A stretch of 64,000 bases of DNA from Candidatus Sungiibacteriota bacterium (GTDB taxonomy: Bacteria > Patescibacteriota > Minisyncoccia > Sungbacterales > HO2-52-23), in contig JACPBG010000003.1 of NCBI GenBank assembly GCA_016180435.1, forward strand, positions 13,791 to 77,790, in the 5' to 3' direction. Below the pieces are notes generated by a model. That model saw only the letters and a list, made by a program, of their open reading frames with translations. It made no database searches and had not been told where the DNA came from. Both the position numbers and the translations under genes were made by a program. Below are positions 2,843 to 47,374 of this stretch, in pieces. Each line of letters begins with the position of its first letter. Position 1 is the first letter of the stretch.

Positions 2843-4585
2843 TTGGTTCGTAGAATTCTCTGGCGAAATGAAAAAACGCTCTATAAGCGGAGTTGTGACG
2901 TTCCGGGACATACGGAGCAATTACTTTCTACGTATTCGGCTGAAAAGCCGTTTAACGTTTATGACCAAAAGTATTGGTGGTCAGATGTATGGGATCCTCT
3001 GCAATTCGGGAGGAAATATGATTTTACACAGCCATTTTTTGAACAATTCCGGCAACTCATTCGGGCGGTTCCGCATCCTATACTTTTGACCGAGTATACT
3101 ACCTGTATAAATAGCGATTATTCCAATTGGGCCGGGGAGCTTAAAAATTGTTATTTAATCTCCGATGCGGATGTGGTGCAGGATTCCGCATACGGATCAG
3201 GAGTGTTTAACTGTAAAGATTGTTTTGATAACGGGAATATCTCGGAATCCGAACTATCGGCGCATAATTTCAATGTGCGTAAGTGCTACCGTACTGTTTT
3301 TTCGGTAGATTGTTCGTCATGTACGGAGGTATGGCTATCTAAAAATTGTATCGGATGCACAAATTGCTTTGGTTGCGTTAATTTAAGAAATAAATCTTAC
3401 CACATTTTTAATGTCCCCTACGATAGAGATAACTATTTTAAAAAATTGGAAGAATTCCGGCTCGGATCATTTGAAAATTTTGAAAAACTGCGGTTTGAAG
3501 CGGAGAAATTTTGGAATGCGCAGCCACAGAAATATATGCGAGGATTTTCTAATACGCGAACCTCGGGTGATTATATCTATCACTCCAAAAATGTTCAGCA
3601 CGGTTTTTTAATTACCGGCGTGGAAGATAGTAAATTTGTAGTTCTTACTCATGTTCCTTCTACGAAAGATTGCTATGACTATACGGATTGGGGATATGGA
3701 GCGGAGCGGCTATATGAATGTATGACGGTGGGGCTAAAGGCGAGTGATATAAAATTTAGTCACATTGTTTTCAGAAATGTGATGGATGTACAATACAGTT
3801 TTTGGTGCGGATCCGGATCATCAAACCTTTTTGGCTGCATCGGCCTCCGCTCCAAATCCTACTGCATCCTAAACAAGCAATACACCAAAGAAGAATACGA
3901 AACACTCGTCCCCAAGATCATTAAACACATGAACTCCATGCCTTATATAGATAAGAAAGGAAGAGTATATAAATATGGTGAATTCTTCCCTCCAGAGCTC
4001 TCTCCCTTCGCATATAACGAAACCATAGCCCAGGAATACTTTCCTTTAACCAAGGAACAAGCCATAGAGCAGGGATATGCCTGGAAAGACCCCGAGGAAC
4101 GAAATTACAAAATCCAAATTCCAAATGATAAACTACCGGATCACATTAAAGACGTTCCCGACGATATCGTGGGGCAGGTGATAGAGTGCGGCCATGCCAT
4201 ACAAGAATCAAGAAGCATGAATCATGAATCAAGAGTAATCTGTAACGAACAATGTACCGAAGCCTTTAAGATCATCAAACCCGAACTGGAGTTCTACCGT
4301 AAAATGAACCTGCCCCTGCCCCGTTTATGCCCCAATTGCCGGCATTACCAGAGAATCAAGCAAAGAAACCCCCTCCGCCTCTGGCACCGCCAATGCATGT
4401 GCCAAGGCGCAAAATCCCAAATCTCAAATTCCAAATCCCAAACAAATTCCAATTTCCAATATAAAAACACTGCCGCTCATTCCCACGGACCAAGTCCCTG
4501 CCCCAATGAGTTTGAGACATCTTACGCTCCGGAGAGACCGGAGATAGTTTATTGCGAGGCCTGTTACAATACGGAGATTATTTAG
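2843..4585 (+). CDS. Cysteine-rich repeat protein with zinc-ribbon motifs (C..C..RNKSY-type repeats, C-terminal CxxC...LPLPRLCPNCR ribbon). The N-terminus appears disrupted (frameshift or deletion near 2796-2806).
   Basis: The long ORF has repeated units (CSSCTEVWLSKNCIGCTNCFGCVNLRNKSYHIFN and CGSGSSNLFGCIGLRSKSYCILN) and a C-terminal ribbon ELEFYRKMNLPLPRLCPNCR. An ATG at 2766 encodes MTRQCQNCKQ in another frame, and VPPPTWCPECR continues in the 2843 frame. The ORF in the 2843 frame has no ATG and uses a TTG start. Confidence 0.55.
   Translation: MVRRILWRNEKTLYKRSCDVPGHTEQLLSTYSAEKPFNVYDQKYWWSDVWDPLQFGRKYDFTQPFFEQFRQLIRAVPHPILLTEYTTCINSDYSNWAGELKNCYLISDADVVQDSAYGSGVFNCKDCFDNGNISESELSAHNFNVRKCYRTVFSVDCSSCTEVWLSKNCIGCTNCFGCVNLRNKSYHIFNVPYDRDNYFKKLEEFRLGSFENFEKLRFEAEKFWNAQPQKYMRGFSNTRTSGDYIYHSKNVQHGFLITGVEDSKFVVLTHVPSTKDCYDYTDWGYGAERLYECMTVGLKASDIKFSHIVFRNVMDVQYSFWCGSGSSNLFGCIGLRSKSYCILNKQYTKEEYETLVPKIIKHMNSMPYIDKKGRVYKYGEFFPPELSPFAYNETIAQEYFPLTKEQAIEQGYAWKDPEERNYKIQIPNDKLPDHIKDVPDDIVGQVIECGHAIQESRSMNHESRVICNEQCTEAFKIIKPELEFYRKMNLPLPRLCPNCRHYQRIKQRNPLRLWHRQCMCQGAKSQISNSKSQTNSNFQYKNTAAHSHGPSPCPNEFETSYAPERPEIVYCEACYNTEII
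4411..4460. repeat. In-frame TCCCAAA/TTCCAAA repeat run in the Cys-rich protein gene (KSQISNSKSQTNSNFQYKN)
   Basis: aaaatcccaaatctcaaattccaaatcccaaacaaattccaatttccaat. Confidence 0.75.
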
Positions 4586-34109: not shown

Positions 34110-34206
34110 CCCCTCACGGGTCTTTTTTATATCCCGGGTTGGCATGTGGATTGCGGTATATTGTTGGACTTATAAGTTTGGAGTATCCTTTAAGTTACAT
34201 TCTTTT

Positions 34207-34884
34207 ATGCTTTTATCTCGCCATGCCATTTTGCGTCATTTCAAAGAGGGGAATATTGTAATTGACCCCTTTGACGATCGAAAATTAAAAACCACCAGCT
34301 ACGATGTTGCGTTGGGTGAGTGGTTTTGGCGCGAAGGACATCCGGAGAGTCGCGCAACACTTCATAATGTATATGACGAGGAATCAACTAAGCGGGTGTG
34401 GCAGGGGCCTTATGGTGCGGAAAGTGCGAGGGCGGTAAGCGAGCGGCTTGGGCTTAATCTTAAAAATATTAAACCCGAAGATAAAATTATTCTTTTACGT
34501 CCGGGCGAGACGGTCTTGGCGCACACTGATGAATTTATAGGCGGACGCAATAAAGTGGTTTCCAAAATGTATGCGCGCTCGTCTCTTGGCAGAAACTTTG
34601 TGGAAGTTTGCAAAGACGCGGGCTGGGGGGACATCGGATATTTCAACCGTTGGACCATGGAGGTGACAAATAATTCGCAGTATTTTACGATCCCGTTGGT
34701 GGTGGGGCGCCGCATCGGGCAGATGGTGTTTTATGAGGTAGAGCCGGTGGCAAGCGGAGCGGATTATGTGGCGGAAGCGGGAAAGTATCAACTATCGCAG
34801 GATATTGAGGAGGTCAAAAAAACCTGGAAGCCGGAGATGATGATACCGAGCATGCATTTAGATTGGGAGGTACGCTCCGTATAG
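34207..34884 (+). CDS. dCTP deaminase / dUTPase-fold protein (Dcd-like) with a C-terminal extension
   Basis: N-terminus ILRHFKEGNIVIDPF...TSYDVALG and core LRPGETVLAHTDEFIGG...SSLGR...GWGD.G matching Dcd family blocks. Confidence 0.65.
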   Translation: MLLSRHAILRHFKEGNIVIDPFDDRKLKTTSYDVALGEWFWREGHPESRATLHNVYDEESTKRVWQGPYGAESARAVSERLGLNLKNIKPEDKIILLRPGETVLAHTDEFIGGRNKVVSKMYARSSLGRNFVEVCKDAGWGDIGYFNRWTMEVTNNSQYFTIPLVVGRRIGQMVFYEVEPVASGADYVAEAGKYQLSQDIEEVKKTWKPEMMIPSMHLDWEVRSV

Positions 34885-35147
34885 CGGTTATCGGCAATTC
34901 TTTTTACAGACACGCAAAAATTTCCCTGCGAGAAATTTTTCTCAGGATCCGGCATTGCTCTCCCGCCTTTAGCGGGATCCATGCCCGCAATGTCTCATCA
35001 TGGTCTGTAAAAAGAATTGCCGATAACCGCATTTATTTTGCTATAAGGTTTTCGTAATGTAACCGGCATTTGCCGGTTTTTTTGATTGACATAAAAAAGC
35101 AAGCGTGTTACTAATGGATATAGATCTTTAATGTTGAGGATGAATCT

Positions 35148-35597
35148 ATGTTAACGAAGCCGACAGAAGCGCAGATCAAAAAAGCATGTGAGTTCTGGGC
35201 GGGAAAACTTGGTAAATTTAACGCATTTTTCCAGACTAAAGAGGAACGGAAAGATCCGGCGAACCGCGAAACATCTTATGAAGAAACTCGAGCGACAGTA
35301 GACGGCCAGCAACATGCGGCGCAATTTTCTACGGCGGAGGCCAAAGAGCGGTTGAAAGTGGAAATTCGTAAATATTTACGTGAGCATGAGTTTGAATTCG
35401 TTCCGGATTTGGGAAGGCGCGTCCATATTTGTTTAGATGTAGATTACCACCCAAGGTATGATTTTTTCGATATCGTAGATAAAGCCGGACTTGATCCGCA
35501 TGATTTTTTGTTTCCGATCAAGACACAACTTGTTATAAAGCCGGACGGCGGGGTAGTTGTTTTTGAGGGCATTAACGCGGAACCGTATGAAATTTAA
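35148..35597 (+). CDS. Hypothetical protein
   Basis: 149-aa ORF with no family recognised. Confidence 0.4.
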   Translation: MLTKPTEAQIKKACEFWAGKLGKFNAFFQTKEERKDPANRETSYEETRATVDGQQHAAQFSTAEAKERLKVEIRKYLREHEFEFVPDLGRRVHICLDVDYHPRYDFFDIVDKAGLDPHDFLFPIKTQLVIKPDGGVVVFEGINAEPYEI

Positions 35598-35695
35598 ATA
35601 GGTTCGAGTCAGCATCTGCCGGCTTATTTTAATTGCCGGTTTTTGTTTGTTTACGCGGGGGTTGACTTTTATTTTAGGATTAGTATCATAGAATT

Positions 35696-35953
35696 ATGAA
35701 ACGCATCCCAAAATTACCAACTATTGATGTTAAAAAATACGGAGGGCGGCAGGTTGCGATTGTGGATGGAAAGATCATCGCATCTGGACGTACTTTACGT
35801 CAGGTTATTTTGCGGGCGCGAAAAATAATTCCTTCGCGGCCACTGCATGAGATTAGAGTTTTTTCCGTACCAAGATCTCTGTCGGTGATTTATTATGCCC
35901 AATATTCAGATTTTTCCATATGGTATCACGCTTCGGGAGGGGGGTGCAGTTGA
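35696..35953 (+). CDS. DUF5678-like small protein (copy 1)
   Basis: MKRIPKLPTIDVKKYGGRQVAIVDGKIIASGRTLRQVILRARK; a paralogue lies at 46530. It overlaps the downstream aspartic protease by 59 nt. Confidence 0.5.
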   Translation: MKRIPKLPTIDVKKYGGRQVAIVDGKIIASGRTLRQVILRARKIIPSRPLHEIRVFSVPRSLSVIYYAQYSDFSIWYHASGGGCS

Positions 35954-36359
35954 TGTTTTCCCGGCGGCAGAAGTTACTTTTGAGGTGAGCAAAAATGAGC
36001 GGTTAACCCTATTTTTTATCATTGATTCCGGAGCGGCAATTTCCGCACTTCCTAAAAGCGATGCTCCAATGCTTGGTATAGATGCCAAGAGCGGTATTTT
36101 GACGAATATTTCTGGTGTCGGCGGAAATTCCGTTATTGGCTGGACGCATGAAGTTGCTGTGGGTTTGGGGAAATATAATTTAAAGCTCCCGATCGTCTTT
36201 TTGGATCATAGCGAAGCGCCTCGGGTATTAGGACGTGCCGGACTCTTTAACCGCTATACGATTATTTTTGAAGAAACCAAACATAGAAGCAGTTTCATGG
36301 ATAATTCTACCAAGGAGTCCCGTAAAATTGCTAAAATCGTTGATGGGGGCGCATCTTAG
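35895..36359 (+). CDS. Retropepsin-like (clan AA) aspartic protease
   Basis: FIIDSGAAISALP (D-S/T-G-A catalytic motif) and about 150 aa, typical of bacterial Asp_protease_2 proteins. Confidence 0.65.
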   Translation: MPNIQIFPYGITLREGGAVDVFPAAEVTFEVSKNERLTLFFIIDSGAAISALPKSDAPMLGIDAKSGILTNISGVGGNSVIGWTHEVAVGLGKYNLKLPIVFLDHSEAPRVLGRAGLFNRYTIIFEETKHRSSFMDNSTKESRKIAKIVDGGAS

Positions 36360-36458
36360 AGGTTAAGAAAAATCAGTTCCGGCTTAGCCGGTTTTTTAAT
36401 TGCGTGCTTAATCGGTTCGTGGTATTCTCAAAGAAGCACTTTTCTACGGAGAAATGAG

Positions 36459-37064
36459 ATGAAGAAGGCCCATTTATTGGCGTTGACTGTTTTGATTGTT
36501 GCGCTTTACGCCAACAGCATATTCGCTCAAGAGATTAAAGTAGGCGGGAAGAGTTTCCAATTTTCCGAGATTCTTTCTAAAACAAAATTAGAGGGCGATA
36601 TAGTGACAAATCCCATCGACTATAAAATCGTTACCATACGTTTTGCGCCGGGTTCGAGCTGGAAACAACAGCTTCCGGAGCTTCAGAATCGCATATGGGG
36701 GTTGAACAAACTCAATTTTAGTTTTAATATTTTTTCTGATTACAGTCCGTTTTATCAACTGGAAGGCGAACTTTTATTTTATCCTAATACAAAATTCGGT
36801 ACTGTTAGAGTGGAAATTTATACGGTGAGCTACGCCGAGCGCCACCGTTTTAGCAGATTGACCGATATTTGGAATAAAATATTGGTCATTACGGAGAAAT
36901 CAAGAGAGACAGATGGAATGGGATTATCGTGTGTTGAGATGACCGGGCTTTTATATTTAAGCGACGCGGTTCAAGAAAATACCGTGATGACCCTGGACGA
37001 ATCCGAATGGAAATTCAATTTTGATCCGCAATCCGCCGAACTTGTGAATTGCAATAAAAAATAA
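36459..37064 (+). CDS. Secreted hypothetical protein
   Basis: Signal peptide MKKAHLLALTVLIVALYANSIFA; a terminator hairpin aaccccgtcaaggggtt follows. Confidence 0.45.
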   Translation: MKKAHLLALTVLIVALYANSIFAQEIKVGGKSFQFSEILSKTKLEGDIVTNPIDYKIVTIRFAPGSSWKQQLPELQNRIWGLNKLNFSFNIFSDYSPFYQLEGELLFYPNTKFGTVRVEIYTVSYAERHRFSRLTDIWNKILVITEKSRETDGMGLSCVEMTGLLYLSDAVQENTVMTLDESEWKFNFDPQSAELVNCNKK

Positions 37065-37108
37065 AACCCCGTCAAGGGGTTATTTTATTTAAACGCGCGG
37101 ATGTTTTA

Positions 37109-37313
37109 CCCCGTTAGAACGCCGTCGACTCCTGTCGGCGGTAATGGCAGAGATAAATGATGGAAGTGTAATGCTCCCATCTACGGGTCGCTCGCCCCGT
37201 TAGAGATGCGGCGCGACAAGACCCCGGCGGTACTAGTGAAAAATGTAATTTTTTTCTTAAATGGATTCAACTCTATAAATCTCTAACGGGGCGAAGCGCC
37301 CGTTCTAACGGGG
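37109..37313. mobile_element. Nested CCCCGTTAGAG-TIR MITE-like element (outer TIR ccccgttagaacg / cgttctaacgggg; inner TIR ccccgttagagat / atctctaacgggg)
   Basis: Two concentric pairs of perfect 13-bp inverted repeats in the hyp-glyA intergenic region. Confidence 0.7.
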
Positions 37314-37351
37314 TTTTACAATAAACAATAGATGTTTTAGAATTTAAGAAT

Positions 37352-38722
37352 ATGGCAATGCAATATAAAAACGTAAAAAAATATGATAGGGAGATTTATA
37401 ATCTTATCCGTGAAGAAGAACGAAGGCAGAAAGATGGGTTGGAACTTATCCCTTCGGAAAGTTACGCATCCGCCGCTGTGCTTGAGGCCCTGGGCAGTAT
37501 TTTGAATGACAAATATGCGGAGAATTATCCGGGAAAACGCTATTACGGCGGGTGCGAGACCGTGGATAAGGTGGAACGGTTGTGCCAGGAACGCGCCTTA
37601 AAAGTTTTTCGCGCGCAAGGATACAAAGTAAATGTCCAGCCCTATTCCGGAAGTCCGGCCAATATTGAGGTGTATGCGGGATTGCTTGATTTTGGAGATA
37701 CGATCATGGCTTTGCGCTTGGATCATGGCGGCCACTTGACCCACGGTTCTCCGGTAAGTTTTTCAGGTAAGGCATACAAATTTATTCATTATGGAGTTGA
37801 TCCAAAAACTGAATGTCTTGATTATGACGAAATTGCGCGGCTCGCCCAAAAACATAAGCCCAAAATTATTCTTTCCGGATTTACCGCCTATCCGCGGCTG
37901 ATAGATTTTAAAAAAATGCACGCGATTGCAAAATCTGTCGGCGCAATTTCCATGGCGGACATTTCGCATATTTCGGGACTTATCATCGGCGGCGCTCATC
38001 CCTCGCCTTTTCCGTTCACGGATGTGGTGACAACTACTACGCATAAAACCCTGCGCGGTCCGCGCGCGGCTATGATATTTTCTCGAAAAGATAAAAGTAT
38101 AAAGATAAAAGATAAAAACGTCTTGATTTCTGAAGCTATTGATAAGGCAGTTTTCCCCGGCATGCAGGGCGGGCCGCATGAGCACACGATCGCGGCAATT
38201 GCCGTGGCTTTGCACGAGGCAAAAAAACCGGAATTCAGAAAATTTGCGGAGCAGGTGGTTAAAAATGCCAAAGTACTTGCCATAGCCATCCAAAAAGAAG
38301 GACTCCGTTTAATTTCGGGGGGAACCGATAATCATCTGATGTTAATTGATTTACGGCCGTTTGGCCCGGGTAGGGGAAAATTTATTGAAAAAGCATTGGA
38401 GGCAGTACGTATTAGTGTAAACAAAAGTCCTATTCCCAATGACCCTTCGCCGCCGTTTTATCCGTCCGGAGTCCGTCTGGGCACCCCGGCGATAACCAGC
38501 CGCGGCATGAAAGAAAAAGAAATGCGTGTTATTGCGGGATTTATCGCGCGTGTGGTGCGGGAATTTTCGCACGTCATACTGCCGGAGGAAAAATCCGAGC
38601 GCGCCACGGCGGTACGTGAATTTACCCAGAAACTTTCTCGCAGCCAATTTGTCAAAAAAATAGGTAGTGAGGTTAAACAGTTCGCATCAAGATTTCCGGT
38701 CCCGGGGATTGACACGAAATAA
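37352..38722 (+). CDS. glyA: Serine hydroxymethyltransferase
   Basis: SHMT motifs (LIPSENY-type N-terminus, PLP-Lys region TTTTHKTLRGPR). Has an in-frame AAAGATAAAAG repeat at 38086-38116 (KDKSIKIKDKN). Confidence 0.95.
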   Translation: MAMQYKNVKKYDREIYNLIREEERRQKDGLELIPSESYASAAVLEALGSILNDKYAENYPGKRYYGGCETVDKVERLCQERALKVFRAQGYKVNVQPYSGSPANIEVYAGLLDFGDTIMALRLDHGGHLTHGSPVSFSGKAYKFIHYGVDPKTECLDYDEIARLAQKHKPKIILSGFTAYPRLIDFKKMHAIAKSVGAISMADISHISGLIIGGAHPSPFPFTDVVTTTTHKTLRGPRAAMIFSRKDKSIKIKDKNVLISEAIDKAVFPGMQGGPHEHTIAAIAVALHEAKKPEFRKFAEQVVKNAKVLAIAIQKEGLRLISGGTDNHLMLIDLRPFGPGRGKFIEKALEAVRISVNKSPIPNDPSPPFYPSGVRLGTPAITSRGMKEKEMRVIAGFIARVVREFSHVILPEEKSERATAVREFTQKLSRSQFVKKIGSEVKQFASRFPVPGIDTK

Positions 38723-44993: not shown

Positions 44994-46028
44994 ATGGAGT
45001 CATTAGGAAGAGGTCTTGAATCCTTAATTCCCGATAGGGGGCCGGAAGAAATTCCGGCGGATTTGGGCGCGGAAAATAGTGAGGATAAAATTACTCCGGA
45101 ATCCGAACACAATTTAACTGCCAGGGCGGGAACGCCCGCATCTCCTCTGGCATCGCTCGGCGCGTCACAGCGCGCTACTTTTCATGATAATTTCCAGCCC
45201 AAAAAAACCGATTCGGTTTTTTGGATTGAAATAGATAAGATTGAATCCAACCCTTATCAGCCGCGCCGCGAATTTAACGAGGGCGCGTTGAAGGATCTCG
45301 CCATGTCCATACGCGAGCATGGATTATTGCAGCCGATTTTGGTTTCCAAGCAAGAGATCGAGACCCAAACCGGACTGGATGTCAGGTATCAATTGATTGC
45401 TGGAGAAAGAAGGTGGCGCGCGGCGACGCTTGCCGGACTTTCGCAAATTCCGGCTGTGATCAGGCGCGGCGTGCCGGATAATCGCCTGAAATTGGAATTG
45501 GCTTTGATTGAAAATGTTCAGCGTGAGGACTTAAATCCCATGGAGCGCGCGCGGGCCTTCAAGCAATTAGTTGATGAGTTCCATCTGATGCAAAAAGAAA
45601 TTGCCGAGCGTATTGGCAAATCGCGCGAAACCGTGGCCAACACTTTAAGGCTTTTAACCCTTCCTGCAGACATCCAGCAAGGGTTGCATGAGGGGCGTAT
45701 TACCGAGGGACATGCGCGCGCGGTTTTAATTGCCGGGGATGATCAAACCAAACAATTTGAAGTATATAATGCGATCTTAATGGATCGTTTGAATGTGCGC
45801 GAGGCGGAAAATCGCGCACGGCATGTGTCCGGCAAAGCGTTTACCCCGCGCAAGCGCCCTTCGGCAGTGCAGGACCCGGAACTTCGCCGTTGGCAGAATG
45901 AATTGCAGGAGCGTTTGGGAACCAAAGTGCGTTTGGAAAAATTGGGCGACCGCGGAAAAATTATTGTTGAGTTCTATTCCGACGAAGAGCTTCAAGGGCT
46001 GTTGGGCAAATTAATACACGAAACATAA
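44994..46028 (+). CDS. parB: ParB/Spo0J partition protein
   Basis: ParB box IEIDKIESNPYQPRREF, GLLQPILV, HTH region, and C-terminal dimerisation segment. Has an N-terminal low-complexity extension. Confidence 0.9.
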   Translation: MESLGRGLESLIPDRGPEEIPADLGAENSEDKITPESEHNLTARAGTPASPLASLGASQRATFHDNFQPKKTDSVFWIEIDKIESNPYQPRREFNEGALKDLAMSIREHGLLQPILVSKQEIETQTGLDVRYQLIAGERRWRAATLAGLSQIPAVIRRGVPDNRLKLELALIENVQREDLNPMERARAFKQLVDEFHLMQKEIAERIGKSRETVANTLRLLTLPADIQQGLHEGRITEGHARAVLIAGDDQTKQFEVYNAILMDRLNVREAENRARHVSGKAFTPRKRPSAVQDPELRRWQNELQERLGTKVRLEKLGDRGKIIVEFYSDEELQGLLGKLIHET

Positions 46029-46161
46029 ATTTGATGGCGGAATTTTATCCCCACACCAAATTTGGTGTGGGGGTTTGTTTGGATGAGGAACTTAGGGGAA
46101 TACTTGACAAATTGATCAGAGAGGTGTAGATTTATTGTGGTTCATTGCTGGGAGTTTATTT

Positions 46162-46458
46162 ATGCGAAACTTGTGGAAGTTATTGTTAGATCTTTTTGGT
46201 TTAACTAAAAATTATTATCCTTCTTTCAGTCCTGGTGAAACCTTGTTGGTAGAAGAAGGCGGACGGCTACTCTTTGGGGTAGTAGAACAGGTTACCGGTC
46301 GTCATGAGTTCGATAGGGTGTTGTTTAAGTATTCAACAACTTCAAGTTTTAGCGCCAATCTGCCTTTTTTTGTTACCATGGTTCGGCAAAAGGTTTCATT
46401 GGCGGATGTCTTGACTAAGGCCAATCAGCTCCCCAATCCGTATCTTAAAACAATTTAG
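46162..46458 (+). CDS. Hypothetical small protein
   Basis: GGGAG 8 nt upstream of the ATG; preceded by a parB-3'-end-like duplicated module containing TTGACA-N17-TAGATT; a terminator atcggctctcgggccgat + T-run follows. Confidence 0.4.
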   Translation: MRNLWKLLLDLFGLTKNYYPSFSPGETLLVEEGGRLLFGVVEQVTGRHEFDRVLFKYSTTSSFSANLPFFVTMVRQKVSLADVLTKANQLPNPYLKTI

Positions 46459-46529
46459 TCGTTGATCTAATCGGCTCTCGGGCCGATTTTTTTGTTTGAC
46501 ATTTTTGGCTGGTAAGTTATACTAAAATT

Positions 46530-46751
46530 ATGAAGCGGTTTACAACCCCTATCATTGATGTAAAAAAATATGGCGGAAAACAGGTGGCGATTGTGAAAGG
46601 AAAAATTGTGGCTTCCGGTATCACCACCCGGGAGGTGTTGGAGAATGCCAGAAAAAAACTTCCGCATGCGACTTGGCGCGATATTCTCTTGGTGAGCGTT
46701 CCTATAATTTTATCCCCACACCTTTCCAGAGTATTTCATAGGAAGGTGTGA
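46530..46751 (+). CDS. DUF5678-like small protein (copy 2, orphan)
   Basis: MKRFTTPIIDVKKYGGKQVAIVKGKIVASGITTREVLENARKKLP, a paralogue of 35696..35953. Confidence 0.5.
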   Translation: MKRFTTPIIDVKKYGGKQVAIVKGKIVASGITTREVLENARKKLPHATWRDILLVSVPIILSPHLSRVFHRKV

Positions 46752-46885
46752 GGATTTATTAATTTGGGTGTAAGCGCGGAAAAATCATGACTGAGTTTTA
46801 TTCGGATGAGGAACTAAGAGGCATACTTGACAAATTAATAAGGGAGGTGTAATCTGTGTGTAGCTATTTGGAAAGGTGAATCGCA

Positions 46886-47248
46886 ATGGAAGAACAAATG
46901 TTGGTTGCTCCGACTTCGGAAGATTTAAGGTTATCCGACTTTATTAAGGGTGAGTTCGTGCGGTGGCATGAAAAAGGAGTAGAACATTTTGGGATAGTGG
47001 CCGAAATAAATTTAGGTGAATCTCAGGTTTTGGCGGTTCAAGGTGGGAATCCTTTCCCCACTTGTTTCTTTTATTTTGCGACGTCAGAACAGCGGGTTCG
47101 CAATAAGGAGGTAGACCTGCGAAAGACGACTTTGGGTGAGTTTCTGATAGATTCGAACACGATATCTAGGAATTACTCGGACTGTTCTAAAAAATATAAC
47201 GAAGTCGTCGATTCATTGGCAGTTCTTTTGCGTGCTGTAAATCATTAA
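46886..47248 (+). CDS. Hypothetical protein (distant paralogue of 46162..46458)
   Basis: Preceded by the second parB-tail-like module (MTEFYSDEELRGILDKLIREV coding remnant, TTGACA-N17-TAATCT); a similar terminator hairpin follows. Confidence 0.4.
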   Translation: MEEQMLVAPTSEDLRLSDFIKGEFVRWHEKGVEHFGIVAEINLGESQVLAVQGGNPFPTCFFYFATSEQRVRNKEVDLRKTTLGEFLIDSNTISRNYSDCSKKYNEVVDSLAVLLRAVNH

Positions 47249-47374
47249 CAGTTCGGTCCTCGGGCCGATTTTTTATAGTTTAAATAATAGCCAGGCTCAA
47301 AGCCCTACCTGTCGGTAGGTAGGGCTACCATAAGCAAACCTTTTAAGCGAGCGTTGCGGCCGAAGGTATTTTCT

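Follow-up and report, generated by a model that had tools for sequence, protein, structure and literature searches.

A DUF5678 Gene Overlapping a Retropepsin-Like Protease Gene in a Candidatus Sungbacteria Genome: A Conserved Gene Pair With a Recently Lost Stop Codon

The DUF5678–Protease Gene Pair

The window analyzed here is a 64,000-nucleotide (nt) stretch of contig JACPBG010000003.1 from a metagenome-assembled genome of Candidatus Sungbacteria, a tiny groundwater bacterium of the Patescibacteria, or Candidate Phyla Radiation (CPR). It contains a two-gene unit on the plus strand. The first gene (35696–35953), with an ATG start and a TGA stop, encodes an 85-amino-acid (aa) protein of the DUF5678 family, as determined by open reading frame (ORF) listing, Pfam analysis, and alignment. 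The second gene (35895–36359; ATG start) encodes a 154-aa retropepsin-like (clan AA) aspartic protease, which was identified by the same means and by AlphaFold2 (AF2) modeling and Foldseek comparison. The two ORFs share 59 nt (35895–35953), and the reading frame of the protease is +1 relative to that of DUF5678, as (35895 − 35696) mod 3 equals 1. The sequence and the alignment placed the catalytic motif D44-S45-G46-A47 at 36024–36035 (+ strand; codons GAT TCC GGA GCG). The alignment of homologues also divided the small gene into a part encoding the 68 aa typical of the family (35696–35899, + strand) and a lineage-specific read-through extension of 17 aa (35900–35950, + strand).

The ORF at 35696–35953 matched Pfam PF18929 (DUF5678) with 33.2 bits against a gathering cut-off of 23.2 (E value, 4.6e-8), with the match spanning residues 12–47 only. 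The protease ORF matched Asp_protease_2 (PF13650) with 29.1 bits against a cut-off of 24.3 (E value, 1.7e-6), and its matches to gag-asp_proteas, Asp_protease, and RVP were under their cut-offs. Against NCBIfam TIGR02281 (clan_AA_DTGA), it scored 16.5 bits, below the cut-off of 57.95, and it belongs to a subfamily other than this one. These results bear out the first-pass annotation of the window, in which an 85-aa DUF5678-like ORF was described as overlapping by 59 nt a DSGA-motif protease shifted by +1, and both of its family assignments lie above the Pfam gathering cut-offs. In the deposited annotation, the pair and a further DUF5678 copy of the window are listed as hypothetical proteins (HYT98_03105, HYT98_03110, and HYT98_03190). 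The 85-aa form of DUF5678 is present on six contigs and is annotated by NCBI as a hypothetical protein (MBI2122086.1); therefore, it is not a read error.

Origin of the Long Overlap

The closest relative of the pair is found at locus L023, whose protease is 87% identical to that of the window. In the alignment, L023 reads TAT TAT GTC TAA TAT TCA and the window counterpart reads TAT TAT GCC CAA TAT TCA, so that a CAA codon (35900–35902, + strand) occupies the ancestral stop position at which the L023 homologue ends with TAA. The T-to-C change abolishing the DUF5678 stop affects only the third base of codon 2 in the protease frame (CCT/TCT to CCC) and is synonymous there. The 31 homologues of the small protein are 62–101 aa long, mostly 67–71, and end in ...SVPKSLSVIYY[VA]-stop. 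The window protein reads ...SVIYYA, followed by 17 extra residues without any match in the alignment. According to this comparison, the 59-nt overlap is confined to the window lineage and is the product of a recent stop-codon loss (TAA to CAA). A similar, independent stop loss has also occurred in L004, L022, and L035, resulting in overlaps of 38–47 nt. In L004 and L035, which represent a Uhrbacteria-type lineage, it adds 9–13 aa to DUF5678; therefore, C-terminal extensions of this protein seem to be tolerated.

The first-pass annotation had likened the arrangement to the gag-pro type of frameshift expression. A programmed +1 (or −2) frameshift within the overlap would generate a DUF5678–protease fusion, and the 59-nt length of the overlap, its +1 frame, and the natural fusion known in distant relatives would be in keeping with such an event. 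A G-rich Shine-Dalgarno (SD)-like run, GGGAGGGGGG, is also located 6 nt ahead of the DUF5678 stop and loosely recalls the prfB +1 frameshift site. However, this run consists of the codons for the conserved REGG of the protease, and a shift near the stop would swap the conserved FPYGITLREGG for out-of-frame residues. An inspection of the overlap for recoding signals, which the first-pass annotation had envisaged, was negative. No canonical X XXY YYZ slippery heptamer was seen by eye in the DUF5678 frame of 35895–35953, no slippery motif was common to the junctions among approximately 100 loci, and the region 35880–36030 folds with −32.9 kcal/mol, no better than its shuffles (z = +0.88). The overlap itself stems from the stop loss described above, and the protease is in frame +1 relative to DUF5678 in one clade and in frame +2 in the other. 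In the alignment, all family proteases have their own Met followed by the conserved x(3-5)-[VI]-F-P-Y-G-I-T-L-R-E-G-G, in agreement with the own Met and plausible N-terminus that had been pointed out for the window protease. No fused DUF5678–protease ORF was found among approximately 100 close CPR loci; one candidate, P0038 (211 aa), was rejected as a fusion, its extra length being a C-terminal extension.

Because neither the frame nor the long overlap is conserved and close relatives have no fused ORF, gag-pro-like frameshifting is unsupported and runs counter to the comparison among relatives, and we regard it as very improbable in the window. One part of the gag-pro analogy has a certain basis, as DUF5678 and a protease do form one polypeptide in distant relatives (P0270 and P0323), but the frameshift expression does not, given the stop loss, the varying frame, and the protease's own Met. 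These findings call for caution, in that a long out-of-frame overlap beside a retropepsin gene can be a trivial stop loss and not a recoding signal.

Conservation of the Pair in Related Genomes

Hidden Markov models (HMMs) built from the two protein alignments were used to locate both genes in 102 related loci, of which 22 came from GTDB genomes (all of them Patescibacteria) and 80 from metagenomes. Every family protease with upstream DNA was directly preceded by a DUF5678 gene on the same strand (101 junctions), and the five proteases without an upstream DUF5678 were all cut by contig ends. The stop and start codons overlapped by 4, 8, 11, or 14 nt in 93 of the 101 junctions. An 8-nt overlap (ATGnnTAA/TGA/TAG, frame +1) was present in 46 junctions and a 4-nt overlap (ATGA, frame +2) in 31, the latter in a more divergent clade; overlaps of 11 and 14 nt were found in 12 and four junctions, respectively. 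The others were gaps of 2 nt (n = 2) and of 60 or 74 nt (n = 2) and only four long overlaps, which measured 38 nt in L004 and L022 (n = 2), 47 nt in L035 (n = 1), and 59 nt in the window (n = 1). Gene order in relatives, which the first-pass annotation had proposed to compare, therefore gives a mixed answer: the long overlap is not conserved, but the genes are tightly coupled and not well separated.

The truncated copy of the window was the only DUF5678 without a partner in related loci totaling 507 kb. The two proteins also diverge together, with a correlation of r = 0.80 between the pairwise identities over 67 pairs. None of 999 Mantel permutations gave a value as high, and the correlation persists inside each clade. 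These comparisons indicate that DUF5678 and the protease are inherited and diverging as one unit. The mean identity was 56% for the DUF5678 core and 45% for the protease. When compared with L023, DUF5678 had 19 synonymous and four non-synonymous codon differences among 68 codons, and the protease had 37 and 20, respectively, among 154, a pattern indicating that both genes are under purifying selection. Since the pair recurs in approximately 100 independent loci and the changes are mostly synonymous, it is more than a product of chance.

A search of the window revealed no further copies of DUF5678 or the protease elsewhere in it. Two divergent pairs per genome or contig were found in several cases (L002 and L021, L011 and L019, L004 and L022, two in L003, and two in L089), and no conserved flanking genes were identified beyond near-identical contigs. 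In L021, the dcd-[pair]-glyA slot known from the window is occupied by a pair from the other clade; between the two slots, the identity is 80% for dcd, 55% for glyA, and only 36% for the protease. The genome of L021 has a clade-1 pair elsewhere (L002).

The dcd–glyA interval is a variable slot (34144–38722 in the window and 1779–4958 in L021), which in L021 holds only the other-clade pair. The window slot contains an ORF at 35148–35597, the pair, and a 201-aa protein (36459–37064) with a hydrophobic N-terminus that appears signal-peptide-like by eye. The ORF at 35148–35597 matched the phage family phrog_8937 of unknown function (E value, 6e-5) and had a weak match to NucS_N. The 201-aa neighbors of the window and L103 were considered as relatives and were found to be unrelated on comparison.

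Expression Signals

A sigma-70-like promoter, TTGACT-16 nt-TATCAT (35662–35689, + strand), matches the consensus at 10 of 12 positions. Its −10 element ends 6 nt before the DUF5678 ATG, and the promoter is kept in L023. Among 70 unique regions upstream of homologous DUF5678 genes, 35 had a promoter of this geometry, with the −10 element ending 5–9 nt before the ATG, compared to 4 of 48 window ORFs taken as controls, and an SD-like motif was present in only 5 of the 70. Because the −10 element stands directly before the first ATG, a leaderless or near-leaderless bicistronic mRNA is predicted. The two-gene unit is closed by an intrinsic-terminator-like hairpin, CCGGCTTAGCCGG, with a T run (36379–36397, + strand). 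Terminator-like sites were also found after 13 of 77 homologous proteases, compared to 8 of 176 random windows.

No SD sequence was found upstream of the window protease gene, and no GGAG-type motif was seen in the printed junctions of relatives. A short stop/start overlap without an SD sequence is a signature of translational coupling, and the family norm would be termination–reinitiation coupling at the overlap of 4–14 nt. In the window, the DUF5678 stop lies 56 nt downstream of the protease ATG, so that ribosomes would cross the protease start, and reinitiation over such a distance is expected to be weak. Overall, what is conserved is a self-contained two-gene module that is probably leaderless and translationally coupled.

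Structural Features of the Two Proteins

The family proteases are approximately 135–160 aa in size. D44, S45, G46, A47, R110, G113, and R114 are invariant in an alignment of 41 homologues, and the downstream clan-AA motif, G-R-[DNEA], is present in the window protease as L112-G-R-A-G. The AF2 model of the protease had a pLDDT (predicted local distance difference test score) of 84.8. When this model was compared with the PDB by Foldseek, the first match was APRc (5c9f; E value, 3.4e-5), followed by the proteases of human immunodeficiency virus (HIV)-1, HIV-2, simian immunodeficiency virus (SIV), human T-lymphotropic virus (HTLV), and equine infectious anemia virus (EIAV). By this model, the window protease has a retropepsin fold. 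At the sequence level, the best matches among solved structures were Ddi1-type retropepsin domains (E values, 0.016–0.1). Neither a signal peptide nor a transmembrane segment was visible in the protease by eye; therefore, it is taken as cytoplasmic. The CPR proteases also share a nearly invariant F7-P8 near the N-terminus (xxxVF-PYGITL).

The AF2 model of the window DUF5678 has a confident core at residues 11–60, in the order short helix, beta-hairpin, helix, and strand. The tail at residues 61–68 is conserved but has a low pLDDT, and the pLDDT of the window-specific extension is below 50. In the family, the conserved region continues past SVP with K-x-L-[ST]-V-[IV]-Y-x to the C-terminus, and a tail motif, [IV]P-x(3-5)-hydrophobic, stands at the extreme C-terminus across the distant family members read. 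A basic stretch, KKYGGKQ, is conserved at the N-terminal side. The DUF5678 profile had no significant match among PDB sequences. As modeled, a folded N-terminal domain with a conserved tail that is disordered alone is as would be expected of a segment folding on a partner.

The core segment QVAIVDGKIIASGRTL of DUF5678 (35747–35800, residues 18–35) resembles the phosphoribosyl pyrophosphate (PRPP)-binding motif of phosphoribosyltransferases (PRTases). Weak PRTase matches were obtained with the NCBIfam adenine PRTase (E value, 0.12), hypoxanthine-guanine PRTase in the PDB (E value, 1.6), and, for one member, PADLOC PRTase_III-A (E value, 0.016), and some DUF5678 homologues bear the JGI name “orotate phosphoribosyltransferase-like.” The resemblance might reflect a loop that binds anions or phosphate, or it might be fortuitous.

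Fused and Response-Regulator Forms in Distant Relatives

When 1.84 billion cluster representatives were searched exhaustively by HMMER with the DUF5678 profile, only 155 were matched at an E value of 1e-3 or lower, most of them 60–100 aa in length. Among the distant DUF5678 members with downstream sequence, six of seven had an adjacent or fused retropepsin-like domain. P0270 (209 aa) and P0323 (213 aa), which are encoded on two diverged contigs, are composed of an N-terminal DUF5678 and a C-terminal retropepsin-like domain in one polypeptide. The C-terminal domain reads LLLDTGSD...ILGRE..NRFRIILD and was matched to the protease profile by hhalign (probability, 69.5%; E value, 4e-5) with DTGS and ILGRE aligned. 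P0323 is encoded as a single DUF5678–retropepsin chain at 3050–3691 of L106 and has a DUF1616 neighbor, which suggests an archaeon; we take this contig to be probably archaeal. The domain junction of P0323 (...GRSW-PYDMDYD) resembles, like F7-P8 of the CPR proteases, an aromatic-Pro self-cleavage site of retropepsins.

On L109 (112–3507), a HisKA/HATPase histidine kinase gene is followed by a gene for a response regulator with a receiver (REC) domain joined to DUF5678 (P0257) and then, with a 4-nt overlap, by a gene for a 143-aa protein that belongs to the protease family (hhalign, 98.9%; E value, 1.6e-17). This locus appears to encode a two-component system with protease control as its output, and the REC-DUF5678 response regulator suggests that DUF5678 has a regulatory role. 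A small DUF5678 gene with the protease directly after it was also found in L107 (hhalign, 98.3%), L110/L111 (Pfam Asp_protease_2, weak), L112/L113 (hhalign, 99.2%), and L115 (hhalign, 97.6%). Taken together, the overlapping genes, the fusion, and the response-regulator output amount to classical Rosetta-stone evidence of a direct link that is functional and probably also physical.

In L112 (1238–2432) and also in L113, a DUF433 gene (COG2442) overlaps the DUF5678 start by 29 nt, and the protease and an unknown 99-aa ORF come after it. In these loci, the module may exist as a variant with three or four genes.

Decayed Copies of the Module

The second DUF5678 ORF of the window (46530–46751, + strand; 73 aa) scored 36.4 bits in Pfam against the same cut-off of 23.2. 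It is preceded by a promoter-like TTGACA-16 nt-TATACT (46496–46523, + strand), the −10 element of which ends 6 nt before the ATG. Its homology to the family is restricted to 46530–46703 (residues 1–58, ...LLVSVP) and is followed by 15 unrelated codons. This orphan belongs to the clade with the 4-nt ATGA overlap (...ATWRDILLVSVPKGLTVVYRL) and lacks the conserved C-terminal tail that the first copy of the window has. It had been described in the first-pass annotation as a paralogue without a protease partner, and tblastn indeed detected no protease or protease remnant downstream. The accompanying statement that it ends where the conserved region ends (...SVP) requires correction, given the 15 further codons of the ORF and the continuation of the family region through K-x-L-[ST]-V-[IV]-Y-x.

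A 17-nt repeat, AATTTTATCCCCACACC, occurs in two exact copies, one at 46706–46722 (+ strand) and the other just after parB at 46041–46057. The similarity of the orphan to the family ends after P58 (46703), and the repeat begins three bases on; therefore, this position is regarded as a recombination or insertion junction. Judging from these features, the orphan is a decayed module that was 3′-truncated at the repeat and lost its protease but kept its promoter. A second decayed module was identified in Candidatus Uhrbacteria (L022, 2799–3229), where DUF5678 and the promoter are intact and the protease is frameshifted after approximately 30 residues and truncated near residue 70, adjoining a 521-aa gene. 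The decay is asymmetric in both cases, with the protease lost and the small gene persisting.

The 3′ end of parB (44994–46028), ...EFYSDEELQGLLGKLIHET, is repeated in the area 45951–47274 as ORF fragments at 46031–46129 and approximately 46787–46852. After each fragment come a small ORF (46135–46458 and 46886–47248) and then a near-identical terminator hairpin (46471–46492 and 47253–47274). The region has the appearance of cassettes inserted in tandem at the 3′ end of parB, with the orphan DUF5678 between them. The two small ORFs are not detectably paralogous and had no Pfam or PHROG matches. A palindromic element is also present at each copy of the 17-nt repeat (46041–46072 and 46706–46745). 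The first is a perfect hairpin, CCCCACACC-AAATTT-GGTGTGGGG; the second has a longer loop, CCCCACACCTTTCC...GGAAGGTGTGAGG, and lies where the orphan is truncated. This element might represent a site of recombination or a small mobile element.

Proposed Role of DUF5678 and Alternative Explanations

We favor, with moderate confidence, an interpretation in which 35662–36397 is a two-gene operon, DUF5678 is the dedicated partner of the protease and gates its activity, and the long overlap is the result of stop loss. The promoter abutting the first ATG would produce a leaderless mRNA that carries DUF5678 and the protease and ends at the terminator. DUF5678 would be translated first and in at least equal amounts, and the protease would be translated by coupling. 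The protease is presumed to be a cytoplasmic homodimer with one Asp per subunit. DUF5678 would bind it via the conserved C-terminal strand and gate its activity, acting as a trans-encoded pro-domain or an antitoxin-like inhibitor. Inhibition is favored because of the logic of gene order and stoichiometry, the asymmetric decay of the copies, and the placement of DUF5678 at the N-terminus of the fused form. DUF5678 is thus most likely a regulatory, pro-domain-like or antitoxin-like partner of the protease; we infer both the physical binding and the direction of the inhibition.

Several observations weigh against this interpretation. A tandem-DUF5678 protein (L108) is encoded without an adjoining protease. 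Foldseek found no significant structural neighbor of the DUF5678 model in the PDB (best E value, 0.28), and no recognizable DNA-binding or inhibitor fold was found in the protein. The REC fusion would be equally compatible with an inhibitor and with an activator or adaptor. The leaderless start is read from consensus hexamers only, and half of the homologous upstream regions failed the simple promoter test. In the window genome, efficient reinitiation coupling is doubtful at a 59-nt overlap.

A more specific version of the partner interpretation is a selfish toxin–antitoxin (TA) or abortive-infection module, in which the protease would be a toxin that cleaves essential cytoplasmic proteins and DUF5678 would be its labile antitoxin. 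We consider this possible, though unlikely. A small upstream gene that overlaps a larger downstream gene by 4–14 nt and a leaderless-type promoter would fit such a module, leaderless transcripts being enriched among TA operons in mycobacteria. The divergent paralogous pairs found two per genome or contig in several cases, the variable flanking genes, and the dcd–glyA slot, where another genome has a 36%-identical pair between flanks of 80% and 55% identity, are also consistent with it, as is the persistence of DUF5678 and its promoter where the protease was lost or frameshifted (the window orphan and L022). Known TA genes are found nearby in L103 (AbiEii/DUF6922) and L104 (ParE/YafQ), and the gene overlapping the pair in L112 is of an antitoxin type, DUF433/COG2442 being a predicted PIN-associated antitoxin (PMC2701414). 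The build of DUF5678, a folded N-terminal domain with a conserved disordered C-terminus, is antitoxin-like, and a few proteases weakly match the PADLOC models PDC-M52B and PDC-M08B (best E values, 5.4e-5 and 2e-4, respectively). However, PDC-M52B was matched by only four of the 41 protease homologues, PDC-M08B by a few, and neither by DUF5678, and the window proteins reached E values of 0.01–0.02 against PADLOC models. Foldseek gave no match of the DUF5678 model to a DNA-binding fold, which would also speak against an antitoxin. Literature searches found no TA family with an aspartic-protease toxin, and Makarova et al. (2009) make no mention of aspartic proteases (PMC2701414). No link to mobile elements was seen, as the module had no matches in PLSDB plasmids, IMG/VR viral contigs, or PHROGs, and its fused and two-component-linked forms resemble regulated proteolysis rather than addiction. 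As a tentative proposal, the module could be a new class of TA- or abortive-infection-like module, in which a cytoplasmic retropepsin effector would be held inactive by the C-terminal strand of its co-translated partner, with the switch elsewhere linked to REC or built as a single-chain pro-domain.

DUF5678 might also be the dedicated substrate or precursor of the protease, or an activator or adaptor that delivers substrates, and not an inhibitor. The obligate pairing, the fusion, and the co-divergence fit this explanation equally, and DUF5678 occupies the output position of REC-DUF5678, which usually acts when switched on. Phe/Tyr-Pro sites are self-cleavage sites of retropepsins, and the aromatic-Pro (W-P) at the fusion junction and the F7-P8 of the CPR proteases would be in line with processing; however, the proteases of L107 and L109 lack the aromatic-Pro motif. 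In the invariant V-P of DUF5678, the P1 residue is beta-branched, a type that retropepsins disfavor, and the conserved strand at the extreme C-terminus suits docking better than cleavage. In addition, conservation is higher in the DUF5678 core than in the protease (56 versus 45% mean identity), which would be unusual for a mere propeptide. We judge a substrate or activator role to be possible but unlikely and prefer the reading of DUF5678 as a gating partner.

Significance and Comparison With Known Systems

Little is understood of the retropepsin-like proteases of bacteria and archaea, and no function has been assigned to DUF5678. The comparative data suggest a concrete role for DUF5678 as the dedicated partner of a small cytoplasmic retropepsin-like family. 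If it is true that this partner gates the protease, the module would be a simple regulated-proteolysis or toxin-like switch, which is widespread in the Patescibacteria, with their very small genomes, and also present in other lineages. No literature on DUF5678 or on its pairing with a protease was found, nor any relevant paper on Asp_protease_2 or on the PDC-M08 and PDC-M52 families. Retropepsin-like proteases are already known from bacteria (APRc, RimB, and Rlo); what is new is the obligate pairing, fusion, or signal-coupling via a small dedicated domain.

The pair is similar to retroviral gag-pro(-pol) in that an upstream ORF overlaps a retropepsin-fold ORF in another frame and in that a distant relative has the upstream domain and the protease in a single chain. 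It differs in having no slippery site or stimulatory structure and in owing its overlap to a stop loss in one lineage. Across the DUF5678 family, moreover, the frame varies, the protease has its own start, and the normal junction is a coupling-type overlap of 4–14 nt. APRc (RC1339) of Rickettsia, RimB, and the Rlo proteases of Pseudomonas aeruginosa share the fold and a single D-[ST]-G-A per chain with the window protease. APRc has been described as membrane-anchored and surface-exposed and the Rlo proteases as secreted, and RimB as a protein of a different Pfam family that works with RimA and RimK. None of them has a DUF5678 partner, whereas the window family is small, predicted to be cytoplasmic, and always paired. 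The Ddi1 retropepsin domains have marginal sequence similarity to the window protease, but they are eukaryotic and accompanied by ubiquitin-like and UBA domains.

Type II TA operons resemble the module in several respects, including a small upstream gene that overlaps the effector gene, an own promoter, several divergent copies, and variable neighborhoods. Orphaned upstream genes after effector decay and a small protein with a folded N-terminus and a disordered conserved C-terminus are further common features. In contrast, the DUF5678 module contains no domain known from toxins or antitoxins, had no matches in plasmid or phage collections, and includes fused and two-component forms. In the p6* transframe region of HIV and in SpoIIGA/pro-sigma-E, a polypeptide encoded beside an aspartic protease controls it or is processed. 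DUF5678 is likewise encoded immediately upstream of an aspartic protease, but it is mostly a separate product with its own conserved globular fold and can be joined to a receiver domain.

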